DNA of 13,563 nt from a virus (lineage: Duplodnaviria > Heunggongvirae > Uroviricota > Caudoviricetes), in IMG/VR virus record IMGVR_UViG_2778261358_000001, one strand, 5' to 3'. How positions within the stretch are numbered: position 1 is the stretch's first letter; every line of letters starts with the position of its first letter. A program made the position numbers. This document shows, one piece after another, positions 1 to 3,000 of the stretch.

Positions 1-3000
1 GTATCAGCACCTGAATCCGCGATTATCCCATATACCTGGTTGCTGATCGCCCCTCCGCACAGGGGGATTCACCATGCAGAAGTGTTTTTAATAAACAGCA
101 AATAAAAAAATCAAGCATTATGCAGGCTGTTTCTTTTTATCACCGGCCACAGCAATACCACAATGCCGCAGACCAGCACCCCATCCGCCAGCACCGACAT
201 GATTCTGCTGGTGAAATCCACCATCACCACCAGAAACAGCAGGAGTGCAGCCACAGCCAGGCGCAGTTTTACCGTCACTGGTGATTCTCCAGACGAAGAC
301 CCAGAACACCGGCAATCTCTTCCAGCACCTTGCGCTCTTCCGGCTCAATTTCGCCGTCTGCCTCCGCAATGGCCACCGCCACATCCAGCACATCTTCCGC
401 TTCACGCGTATCGTGTTTCACATCTTCAATTTCACGCAATGCCGCTCGACGACCAATTTTAAAGTTCGTATCCAGCTGACCGATAATGGTTGCGCTAATC
501 GCATTAATTTCTGACGTAAACGCGGACAACGCAGGCTGGTTACGCAAGACCTGCTCGATCTTCGCTTTCTCTGAAGCCTCACATTCACCATCTGCATAGG
601 CCACCAGATAGGCAGCATTAATAACCGCCTGTGCCAGATCACGTTTCTCAAACTTTTTAATTTCCACTGCCGCTCGGCGGGCTTTTTTACCAAAAATACC
701 AAACATCGTGACGTTCCTTTGGGTGGGTGAGCCAACGCCCGGGAGCGATCTGCCCACAGAGAAAGTCACACTGACCACTCCGTAAGCTCACCCCCGAAAG
801 GCTCTGTGGTTGATATGCGCCGGGCGTGGCGCAGATACAAAAAAAGCCCGCCGAAGCGAGCCTGATAATAAATCTGGAGCGGGTAGCGGGAATCGAACCC
901 GCATCATCAGCCTGGAAGGCTGAGGTAATAGCCATTATACGGTACCCGCATATGGTGCCGGCTACCGGAATCGAACTGGCGACCTGATGATTACAAGTCA
1001 GTTGCTCTACCATTGGAGCTAAACCAGCATGTTTGGCGGGACAGCGTGGACTCGAACCACGATAAGAAGGTTAACAGCCTTCCGTAATGACCTTTATACG
1101 ACTGACCCAAATAAAAAAAGCCACCGTTGCAACTTAAGAGTCACTAACGGCAGCTTACATCTTTAAACGGTATGATATTTCATTCTGGCTGCCTCAAAAG
1201 CCGCAGCGGCAAGTTCGGCAGTGTCATGGTATCCAAGGTTAATACACTTTCCAGACGCATTAATTCTTGCTCTCCATTTCCCGTACTTAGCATCCCAAGA
1301 CACGCCACGGTATCCAGATTTATTATTCTTCTGAATTTTCCTGTTTTGCATATTTTCGGAATGAGTGACAAGACGAAGATTTGATATCCGGTTATCTGTT
1401 CTTACCCTGTTGATGTGATCAATAAAACCATCTGGCATGGTGCCATAAACAATCAACCATGCCAGTCTGTGAGCAGGGTATGCTTTACCATTAATCATAA
1501 TCATTAAATACCCATCAGAATTTATTGATGAGCATTTCTTGAAAGCAAAACGAGAGTTCCATGTCAAAGTGGTCCTCTCTCTCCCCTGCCTCCACCTCCA
1601 GTGAAAGTCGCCTGATGATGGATTGTAATCAACAACAGAAAGCACCATTTCTGGCGTTAATTTTATTTCTTTCATCGCTTTACCTTAGGGATAGAGCCTG
1701 TTCGCGTAGATATGACAGCCAAGAGCGGAGCGATGTTTCCACCACCATATCTCAGGCCCATATCACTAAGACTCTTGTTTTGATTGCACGCGAATGCAAA
1801 AAAGCCCACAGGAGGTGGGCTTGTGATGGTTGCTGAATGCAAAAGCAGCAGCATATGTGAATATTATGGCTAAATGGCTAATTGCATGTCAAGACTTTTA
1901 ACAGCAACATGCTTAACTTTCTCAACACGTTTACGCATTTTGAAAGCATTTTGCATTGGTTGGTACAAAACAAATAATGACGCTTTCAGGATATCGTCAA
2001 TTTCGTTTCTACAGGTTGCCAGTGAAGGTTTTCTCCATCCCTCGCCACCGCGTCCACACATCTTGCGTGGCTTTGCAGTCGCGTGATAGTAGGATGCAAT
2101 TGCTCTCTTAGATGAACCATGAGCGTAGTAGCTGAGGAGGATGCCAAAGGCTTTCTTGTCAATGTACATGACGGAATCGACGACCTGAGAAATCAACATT
2201 CCATCATCATCATTGCACATTGGTCTTGTCATAACTCTTCCCGGCTCTACGCTCTCCATGAACTTCGCTATTACGCTGCTCATGCGCTTTTCCAGACGAC
2301 CTGAATAAACCCATGCGCCCCACAGTTCAAGCCAGCCATTCAGCCAATCGTGCTGTTCTTTGGTGAGGTTTGGTTCTCTTATGCCCATGCGACTTCTCCC
2401 TTGTTATCTGGAATGGTTTTTACTGAGAGCGTCATGCGGCCTCACTTCTGCTGTTTCGCAGGTCTTTGAGTTTCTGTTGGTACTCTGCCTTGATGGCCCT
2501 GCACTCTTCGACAGTCCAGCGATGGCGGTTATGGTTTGATTCGATTTCATCTACTGCTTCCTGCCCGATGCGGCTAATCAGTTCGACGCGATACAGAACG
2601 AGATTTCCGCTTTTGTGCTGGTTGCACACCACGCATTGCTTGTGAATATTGCGTTCATCAAATCGGAGTTGAGGTGCCGCAGCAGTTGTCCGGTAATGTC
2701 CGGCATCCCACTGAGCAGACGTGAGCGTTCCGCACGAGATACATGGTAAGTCGCGGTCTCTTTCTCTGACGAAGGCGTTTACGGCTTGTTGGGCTTGTTT
2801 AATCCAGTAACTGCGGGGCTTTAAGGCGAGTTTTCGAATCTTCAGTTTATCTTTCTGTTTCTGCTCCTCTCGTCGTCGTTTCTTCTCTGCTGCTTTTTCC
2901 GCTTTTTCGCGTTCTTTACTTCGTCGTTCGAGTGCTAATTGAGTTCCGTGTTCCGGGCAGCACCACCACTGATTTGAGAATGCCGGGTGAAACCATTCCT

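Follow-up and report, generated by a model that had tools for sequence, protein, structure and literature searches.

What is an HNH-AP2 endonuclease gene doing at the head of a phage late operon? The question is raised by a stretch of 13,563 nt (hereafter the window; IMG/VR record IMGVR_UViG_2778261358_000001, a Caudoviricetes virus), a lambdoid Escherichia coli prophage that reads mostly on the minus strand and in which an open reading frame (ORF) of this type at 1163-1675 follows the antiterminator gene Q and the late promoter pR′. The question has two parts: (i) whether the gene is a selfish element that homes into phage genomes or a function retained for its use to the phage; and (ii) how its expression is controlled. 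A preliminary description of this DNA had proposed a selfish gene that may be expressed on induction and could exclude markers of related phages.

As to the first part, we think it probable, with some reserve, that the ORF belongs to the I-HmuI-like HNH(HNN)-AP2 class and is a free-standing gene of the homing-endonuclease type, carried on an optional cassette of ~700 nt directly after Q/pR′. Both domains of the protein, HNH_3 (PF13392; residues 66-110, E 2.1e-18, 66.1 bits, cutoff 24.8, with the whole profile 1-46 covered) and AP2 (PF00847; residues 120-167, E 1.6e-8, 35.1 bits, cutoff 33.3), score above the Pfam curated cutoffs, which bears out the endonuclease gene of the preliminary description. 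The gene is also free-standing, as described there: it is an independent ORF between the Q/pR′ leader and the tRNA genes, with no intron-like RNA family found by Rfam. When a profile of the clade to which the protein belongs is compared with PDB sequences, it matches I-HmuI (1U3E) over the nuclease half (E 9e-4) and plant AP2 domains over the C-terminus (WRI1 AP2, E 6e-9). An AlphaFold (AF2) model has a predicted local distance difference test (pLDDT) score of 86.7, with the nuclease region above 88. The top PDB fold match of the model is again I-HmuI (1U3E; probability 1.00, root-mean-square deviation (rmsd) 3.3, 108 columns), with a modest Foldseek E of 1.9e-3, and the next matches are AP2/ERF domains (1GCC; template modelling (TM) score 0.68, rmsd 1.7), the modelled AP2 domain consisting of strands 125-128, 133-140 and 143-150 and helix 153-167. 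A beta-beta-alpha-metal nuclease fold and an AP2 fold are thus both present in the model. Two alignments, of 13 and 9 clade members, show no variation at the catalytic and structural residues D86-H87, N95, N99, H105 and N108, and D86-H87 and the Asn residues align with the D74-H75...N...N region of I-HmuI; as judged from these alignments, the active site is intact. Among close alleles dN/dS is 0.04-0.19, synonymous changes exceeding non-synonymous ones, and between subclades dS is saturated with dN at 0.13-0.41. By these substitution patterns the gene is under purifying selection and functional.

A packaging-type HNH protein like HK97 gp74 was considered and set aside: it is of another HNH subfamily, the window gene is not beside terminase, and HK97 carries gp74 elsewhere. 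Two database proteins, P0020 (PF11650+PF13392) and P0024 (PF00847+PF05269), consist of halves of the HNH-AP2 protein (100% and 99% identity) fused to Cro-like or CII-like segments, and are presumably products of large prophage deletions.

The cassette is delimited by alignment with Sf6 and JLK-2012, which have the same flanks without the HNH gene and define an indel of ~700 nt. On the upstream side divergence begins directly after the -10 element of pR′, and on the downstream side homology to the empty site is back 6 nt past the HNH stop codon. Between these borders lie, in order, a late leader (leader A), an intrinsic terminator (terminator A), an RNA leader of ~125 nt and the HNH-AP2 ORF. 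Beyond them, the phage-21-type leader and tR′ resume as the stretch TAAGCTGCCGTTAG...AACGGTGGCTTTTTT (annotated in Sf6); here tR′ itself (GCTGCCGTT...AACGGTGGC with a T-run behind it; 1113-1154, minus strand) separates the HNH stop codon from tRNA-Asn. Because terminator A lies upstream and the 21-type tR′ downstream, the gene is flanked by two intrinsic terminators. Its placement between tR′ and the tRNA cluster in the preliminary description is therefore correct in that it lies upstream of tRNA-Asn; tR′, however, comes after the ORF. pR′ overlaps the 3′ end of Q, and its spacer contains the tandem Q-binding repeats AATTAGCC/ATTTAGCC (1868-1883), which match the Q-binding elements of phages 21 and L (PMC8022706). 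The cassette duplicates the leader and terminator and leaves the Q-binding element intact; co-oriented with and downstream of this promoter, the gene does belong to the late transcript, as had been claimed.

Where the cassette is present, it takes the place of the +1 region of the 21-type leader, and in most lineages the conserved AAGCTGCCGT box stays beside the stop codon; it is speculation on our part that this box is a candidate binding site for the AP2 domain. Leader A and terminator A form the ordinary late leader of the HNH-less Hafnia phage yong1, in which the holin gene comes directly next. Compared with yong1, phages of the type seen at locus L009 have RNA leader, ORF and terminator inserted just past the tR′ T-run, and the insertion is bordered on both sides by GGGCTTTTT(T)GCATT. 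By analogy with TAAGCT of Sf6 and phage 21, the TATGCT of leader A may act as a sigma-dependent pause element. Should pR′ be constitutively active, like its counterparts in lambda and Stx phages, a stop at terminator A would produce a leader RNA of ~60 nt in lysogens, which may be likened to lambda 6S RNA or StxS. A further terminator-like hairpin (AGGCTCGCTTCGGCGGGCTT plus a T-run; 844-863, minus strand) lies directly 3′ of tRNA-Gly, ahead of the TerB gene, and so brings the number of terminators within ~1 kb of the late leader region to three.

The cassette is optional. Of 5,426 complete E. coli genomes 39 carry it whole, and a search of 50,697 phage records finds it in HK629 alone, whereas an uninterrupted Q-pR′-tR′-tRNA-Asn junction is found in 438 E. 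coli genomes in its Sf6 type and in 387 in its 21/JLK type, two counts that may overlap. The presence/absence polymorphism predicted for this site in the preliminary description is thus real. That description had also held that universal presence with synteny would indicate a domesticated function. Synteny within the clade is indeed strict, always directly after Q, but presence is far from universal, and the selfish-element reading, which is reasonable and partly supported by these data, therefore survives. The cassette block (at least 96% identity) occurs on at least three phage backbones: with a Sf6-type Q and tRNAs (the window), with a 21-type Q and tRNAs (UTME-3), and with a Sf6-type Q and next to it a lambda-type holin, but no tRNAs (HK629). 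This distribution, read from sequence comparison, is compatible with homing. Phage LZSFT34 has kept the cassette with its tRNAs deleted, and Sf6, phage 21 and JLK-2012 have the tRNAs without the HNH gene; a functional tie between gene and tRNA cluster was rejected on these combinations. There are also decayed copies. In the PhiR12 phages (as in L007, PhiR12_1; ~2500-2570) the leader is still there, but the HNH ORF ends after its first ~68 nt, at a deletion that fuses this remnant to sequence near the STnc100 region. At locus L109 (~700-707) a 1-nt deletion causes a frameshift leading to a stop at codon 4.

The relatives of the gene fall into distant ones and a distinct clade. A tblastn search yields relatives in 3,358 phage records; those of the Xanthomonas phages Xop411 and Xp10 rank first, with ~45% identity. 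The clade members lie always immediately after Q and ahead of the lysis genes, with identities of 76, 71, 69, 67, 65, 62 and 53% plus one pair at 43%, and come from E. coli, Serratia, Pantoea and viral or metagenomic contigs of unidentified host. At one locus (L250) the gene stands behind an apparently different, lambda-like Q, as judged by eye. A profile search of genome contigs with the protein alignment returned distant relatives only (at most 48% identity) and no further Q-adjacent loci. In other phages the HNH-AP2 family as a whole behaves like mobile homing endonuclease genes (PMC2248197, PMC10448857), and the HNN-AP2 genes of Xanthomonas phages have been gained and then have degenerated (PMC2248197). 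Related prophages carry additional HNH_3 genes, some with AP2 or NUMOD4, in the nin region beside NinG, NinH and Q (L009 2776-3297; L013 2544-3098; L014 2042-2518; L016 1959-2549; L127 1651-2178; L005 9183-9785; L250 2056-2577), and L009 and L011 have HNH-AP2 genes on both sides of Q. The neighbourhood of Q looks like a hotspot for endonuclease genes.

The second part of the question, that of expression, turns on the RNA leader between terminator A and the start codon. It is 84-97% identical at the nucleotide level where the ORFs are 60-75% identical, and its few differences among relatives are compensatory. RNAalifold and a covariance model (R1; match at 1664-1799 in the window, 147.9 bits) give three helices: a hairpin P0, a long P1 with the Shine-Dalgarno (SD) sequence in its 3′ strand, and P2 (leader RNA position i corresponds to window position 1800-i). 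Among 32 distinct sequences, 95.1% of cells are paired, compared with 36-51% when the partners are slid by 1-3 columns. Both sides have changed in 17 of the 42 pairs, and none of 500 shuffles reaches any of the five observed measures; in these counts the nested helices were aligned by the model itself, whereas the two pseudoknots included are unbiased because they were not modelled. Cells of the SD within P1 are 85-100% paired. The excess of G.U cells (116) over A.C cells (26) indicates that the structure belongs to the mRNA-sense strand.

Three pseudoknots complete the fold. PK1 joins the P0 loop to a 7-nt bulge between P2 and P1 and covaries through TTCGCGT/ACGCGAA, TTCTCGT/ACGAGAA, TTCTCC/GGAGAA, TTCCCC/GGGGAA, TTCACC/GGTGAA, TCGCA/TGCGA and TCCCC/GGGGA, with an eighth variant, TCTCAC/GTGAGA, in L250. 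PK2, between the apical loop and the region around the start codon, covaries likewise (CATCGCT/AGCGATG, TATCGCT/AGCGATA, TTTCGCTGA/TCAGCGAAA, ACATCGT/ACGATGT and CTTTCATCGTG/CACGATGAAAG); it was scored by a separate script, because in the covariance-model alignment the apical loop of type 2 is displaced by 2 columns. In PK3, which is 100% paired, the CAAGAG immediately 5′ of P1 pairs with CTCTTG of the apical loop; the variants CCCGAG/CTCGGG and CGAGAG/CTCTCG were seen by eye in the alignment. This covariation identifies the leader as a conserved RNA with pseudoknots, its SD paired within P1 and its AUG with the apical loop.

A leader peptide was examined as another account of this conservation and rejected. 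A 60-aa ORF (1672-1854, minus strand) starts at an ATG in the late leader and overlaps the HNH start as ATGA, but its frame is not conserved: a TAG interrupts it in L009-type loci, and 1-nt indels do so in others. Only in P0004 and P0010 do gene callers join it to the HNH ORF. No Rfam 15 family matches the leader at the gathering score or at E<=10 in the window and eight related loci, the sole weak matches nearby (E<=10) being the adjacent terminator hairpins. In a limited literature search we found no specific account of an HNH-AP2 gene after Q or of a structured RNA before KilA-N or Rha genes. The leader RNA appears to be undescribed; because the search was limited, the lack of an earlier description is unproven.

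The leader is not confined to this gene. A wider search, consisting of a DNA pattern scan of IMG/VR and BLAST against phage records, revealed a second leader subfamily that precedes KilA-N, Phage_pRha, ANT, ORF11CD3 and T5orf172/MUG113 genes, all of them members of the 'Bro network' or linked to it (PMC10111431). Its copies lie usually just past the Rz gene (HK97 37536-37666, HK022, phiEt88, Midgardsormr38 and Hafnia yong1) and in some phages in the tail-gene region (SPN3UB and Klebsiella RAH1); they are unannotated in those records, and 25 of the 5,426 E. coli genomes contain this subfamily. Across all copies the leader measures ~125-140 nt, an ATG follows it by 14-19 nt in every copy, and a GC-rich hairpin with a T-run precedes it by 4-23 nt in 31 of 32 distinct copies. 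Examples in locus coordinates are L324 (HK97) 2202-2348, L011 6452-6600 and L008 1026-1167, with others at L293-L328. The idea that the leader is a general feature of HNH-AP2 genes was discarded, as the covariance model finds it only in L250 and L254 among 100 loci with distant relatives (HNH-AP2 identity 34-46%; nhmmer and covariance-model search).

These features suggest how the cassette might work. Q-modified RNA polymerase that starts at pR′ would pass terminator A, transcribe the leader and the HNH gene, pass terminator B (the 21-type tR′) in turn and go on to the tRNA and lysis genes. If, as we infer, only the Q-modified polymerase transcribes the gene, its transcription would be late, after induction only. 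The fold of the leader would bury the SD in P1 and the AUG in PK2 and so keep translation of the nuclease off or low by default, until a trigger opens it; candidates are a ligand, a protein, RNase processing and temperature. The preliminary expectation of expression on induction is in this respect only half right: transcription is plausibly late and driven by pR′, but translation is probably gated rather than automatic, since the leader sequesters SD and AUG. Once made, the protein may use its AP2 domain to bind DNA, and may nick or cut the late-leader allele of a relative that lacks the cassette and is present by co-infection or as a co-resident. In the repair that follows, with the cassette-bearing genome as template, the cassette would be copied together with nearby markers, Q/pR′ on one side and tR′ and the tRNAs on the other. 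A gene that is seemingly functional, restricted to one site and sporadically present fits the signature of an active free-standing homing endonuclease.

We also advance, more tentatively, a broader possibility: that the leader represents an undescribed class of cis-regulatory RNA of lambdoid phages, a compact, triple-pseudoknotted gate placed behind a terminator that would silence the translation of Bro-network and homing-endonuclease genes (HNH-AP2, T5orf172, KilA-N, Rha and ANT) within the late transcript until a signal arrives, RNA and ORF making up an exchangeable unit with the ORF being swapped and the RNA kept. Conceivable signals are small ligands, proteins of phage or host, RNase processing and a trans-acting RNA of a competing phage. 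The three pseudoknots and invariant junction nucleotides are suggestive of a riboswitch; no ligand can be inferred, because the downstream genes are diverse.

Several considerations weigh against homing and against a nuclease-specific gate. Cutting of the empty site by the protein is a prediction, as is any cleavage site. The upstream border is confounded because leader A is the normal late leader elsewhere (Hafnia yong1), and part of the 'insertion' may be module exchange by homologous recombination rather than homing; modular recombination via homologous leaders and terminators would likewise yield the pattern of one block on three backbones. Translational repression by the leader is a prediction from base pairing alone, and the leader family, also found ahead of non-nuclease genes (Rha, KilA-N and ANT), is not specific to endonucleases. 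Finally, synteny with Q across genera (down to 43-53% identity), purifying selection and an elaborate leader fit a retained useful function equally well. Such a function is the alternative we take most seriously while still thinking it rather unlikely: a domesticated accessory nuclease that does not home, and that degrades competitor or host DNA late in infection, excludes relatives without gene conversion, or aids recombination. The gene's fixed place after Q in E. coli, Serratia, Pantoea and unclassified viral contigs would suit it, as would a leader more constrained than the ORF, which suggests that controlled expression matters. A beneficial gene is harder to reconcile with its presence at only ~5-10% of comparable E. 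coli loci, with truncated and frameshifted copies, and with the mobility of the family elsewhere (PMC2248197, PMC10448857); the purifying selection that might speak for domestication is seen in spreading, active homing endonucleases too.

The genes behind the second leader subfamily bring up a different role, in which the protein is a DNA-binding regulator of the Bro-network type (like Rha, KilA-N and Ant) that acts through AP2, the nuclease being secondary or lost. HNH_3-AP2 proteins have been linked to Bro-network segments (PMC10111431), and a leader shared with KilA-N, Phage_pRha, ANT and ORF11CD3 genes points the same way. We nevertheless regard this as improbable: every clade member has kept the catalytic and structural residues of the HNH domain unchanged, and the nuclease core is confidently modelled and superposes on I-HmuI. 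T5orf172 genes, which are of nuclease type, use the leader too, so that the feature shared is the type of cassette and not a regulatory function. Least credible, in our view, is that the leader acts as DNA, as a recombination boundary sequence, a protein-binding site or a promoter, with its structure incidental. Lambdoid phages do have conserved boundary sequences at module junctions (Sf6 annotation), and the repeats that flank the L009-type cassette could be taken in this sense. Compensatory changes on both sides of helices and covariation in three long-range pairings that the covariance model does not include are not what a DNA element would be expected to show, however; the preponderance of G.U over A.C points to one transcribed strand, the orientation and the spacing to the ATG are fixed, and no sigma-70-like promoter was found in the element in the window or in HK97.

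Comparison with known systems helps to place the cassette, which on the reading we prefer is a homing-endonuclease unit. I-HmuI, an intron-encoded HNH nicking homing endonuclease of Bacillus phage SPO1, is the best match in sequence and fold (residues ~47-114), and in both proteins a beta region at the N-terminus precedes a His-Me finger that bears a D-H...N...N motif. Identity is only ~22%, however, and I-HmuI lies inside a group I intron and has helical, helix-turn-helix (HTH) C-terminal DNA-binding modules, whereas the window gene is free-standing with a C-terminal AP2 domain. The HNN/HNH-AP2 genes of other phages (Xp10/Xop411/OP1, Felix O1-like, T5, T1 and the 'IPA-HNH' of ICP1) have the same two-domain architecture, with the boxes HRLAWL, DH, DNR, NLR and EN in common, but they occupy scattered sites with no conserved flanks reported, unlike the window clade with its tie to the Q/pR′ site and a structured leader. 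The T4 endonuclease SegB, free-standing like the window gene and encoded in the tRNA region, causes that region, with its neighbouring markers, to be inherited preferentially in mixed infection (PMC2330249), which is behaviour of the kind proposed in the preliminary description. The activity of SegB, a GIY-YIG enzyme, has been demonstrated, whereas the window protein belongs to another family and its nuclease role is predicted; moreover, the link of the window gene to tRNAs is incidental, because HK629 and LZSFT34 have the cassette without tRNAs. The SegB parallel is therefore an analogy and not evidence.

With respect to the leader, the nearest counterpart among phage homing endonucleases may be I-TevI, whose ribosome-binding site is reportedly hidden by mRNA structure in early or longer transcripts, which delays or limits synthesis of the nuclease. 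For I-TevI a simple hairpin is said to suffice, and a late promoter close by to relieve it; in the window there is a fold of ~125 nt with three helices and three pseudoknots, and no internal promoter was detected. The morons of lambdoid phages, in the sense of Juhala and Hendrix, are optional single-gene units among the late genes, each with its own promoter and terminator. The cassette resembles them as an optional one-gene unit between conserved late-region genes with its own terminator 3′, and differs in opening with a terminator and a putative translational-control RNA; a moron model with a promoter inside the leader was dropped on the promoter searches mentioned above. A further comparison is with the immunity RNAs P1/P7 c4, P4 CI/seqA and Gifsy IsrK (Rfam C4 and isrK; PMC10111431), which like the leader are structured RNAs just upstream of antirepressor or Bro-network genes, and whose loops pair with short complementary boxes upstream and downstream, including the ribosome-binding region. 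Neither Rfam C4 nor isrK matches the leader even at E<=10; in contrast to these RNAs, its pairings look intramolecular and simultaneous, and it lies in a late operon directly behind an intrinsic terminator.

Table 1. Features of the window discussed in the text, in window coordinates (-, minus strand; +, plus strand).
Feature	Position	Strand	Basis or remarks
cI-like repressor	9710-10417	+	
Rha/ANT protein	3037-3765		
NinG	2432-3037		
Antiterminator Q, Sf6 gp59 / phage 21 family	1870-2388	-	PF06530, E 1.3e-25
Late promoter pR′	1863-1892	-	TTGACA 1887-1892, 18-nt spacer, CATAAT 1863-1868; 11/12 matches
Late leader A, initially transcribed region	1823-1862	-	-10-like TATGCT at 1850-1855
Upstream intrinsic terminator (terminator A)	1796-1822	-	AAGCCCACCTCCTGTGGGCTT + T-run
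Structured leader RNA, ~125 nt	1676-1799	-	RNAalifold, covariance model R1
P0 hairpin	1784-1799	-	
CAAGAG (PK3 5′ side)	1772-1777	-	
P1 5′ strand	1753-1770	-	
P2 5′ strand	1742-1752	-	
Apical loop CATCGCT..CTCTTG	1719-1741	-	
P2 3′ strand	1708-1718	-	
J2/1 ACGCGAA	1701-1707	-	
P1 3′ strand	1684-1700	-	
SD TAAGG	1683-1687	-	
AGCGATG including start codon	1673-1679	-	
HNH_3 + AP2 endonuclease ORF, 170 aa	1163-1675	-	
Phage-21-type late leader remainder + tR′	1113-1162	-	Starts TAAGCTGCCGTTAG; alignment with Sf6/JLK-2012, Sf6 annotation of tR′ and qut
tRNA-Asn(GTT)	1034-1108	-	
tRNA-Thr	956-1028	-	Rfam only, 49 bits; missed by ARAGORN
tRNA-Gly(TCC)	875-949	-	

The surroundings of the cassette are those of a lambdoid prophage (Table 1), with O, P, NinB and a P63C protein also encoded in the window. 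On the 3′ side of Q the order is the HNH-AP2 ORF, three tRNA genes and a TerB/TciA-DUF3927/TciB pair. The tRNA genes are, from the comparisons above, resident late-operon genes outside the cassette; the Thr gene lies between those for tRNA-Asn and tRNA-Gly, and a Thr tRNA is annotated in Sf6, JLK-2012 and RefSeq relatives. Farther 3′ (111-778 and 1-103, both on the minus strand) are a TerB-family (TciA-like) protein, a DUF3927/TciB-like protein of 55 aa and a match to STnc100. The TciA-like protein probably starts at an ATG near 706, because annotated relatives have 143 aa; the Rfam STnc100 match is truncated by the window edge and scores exactly the gathering score (47 bits).

At the other end of the window, in the rexAB position between the cI-like repressor and N (10478-12388, plus strand), there are three ORFs. 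They encode a DUF3024 protein (PADLOC PDC-S43, E 5e-42), a protein of 153 aa without a family, and a Ser/Thr protein kinase of 348 aa (Pkinase, E 2e-46; PADLOC mad6 and PD-T4-6-like). These genes are probably a prophage-borne anti-phage defence cluster.

Finally, we consider what the cassette means for lambdoid phages. The nuclease gene alone adds little: phages abound in genes of the HNH-AP2 kind, and HK629 and RefSeq E. coli genomes already have this one under the label of HNH endonuclease. Two features extend what was known, namely the tie of this clade to the first transcribed bases of a Q-dependent late operon and, above all, an apparently uncatalogued leader RNA that is more conserved than the protein. 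A clade bound to one site offers a clean, testable system for homing and marker exclusion among lambdoid and Stx-type prophages that share Q/pR′ modules. Relatives of the leader sit unannotated in the model phages HK97 and HK022, and the family stands ahead of KilA-N, Rha, Ant and T5orf172 genes. If the leader is indeed a signal-responsive gate, it would add an RNA family for structural and mechanistic study, and it would explain how potentially toxic genes of the nuclease and antirepressor types can ride inside late operons.

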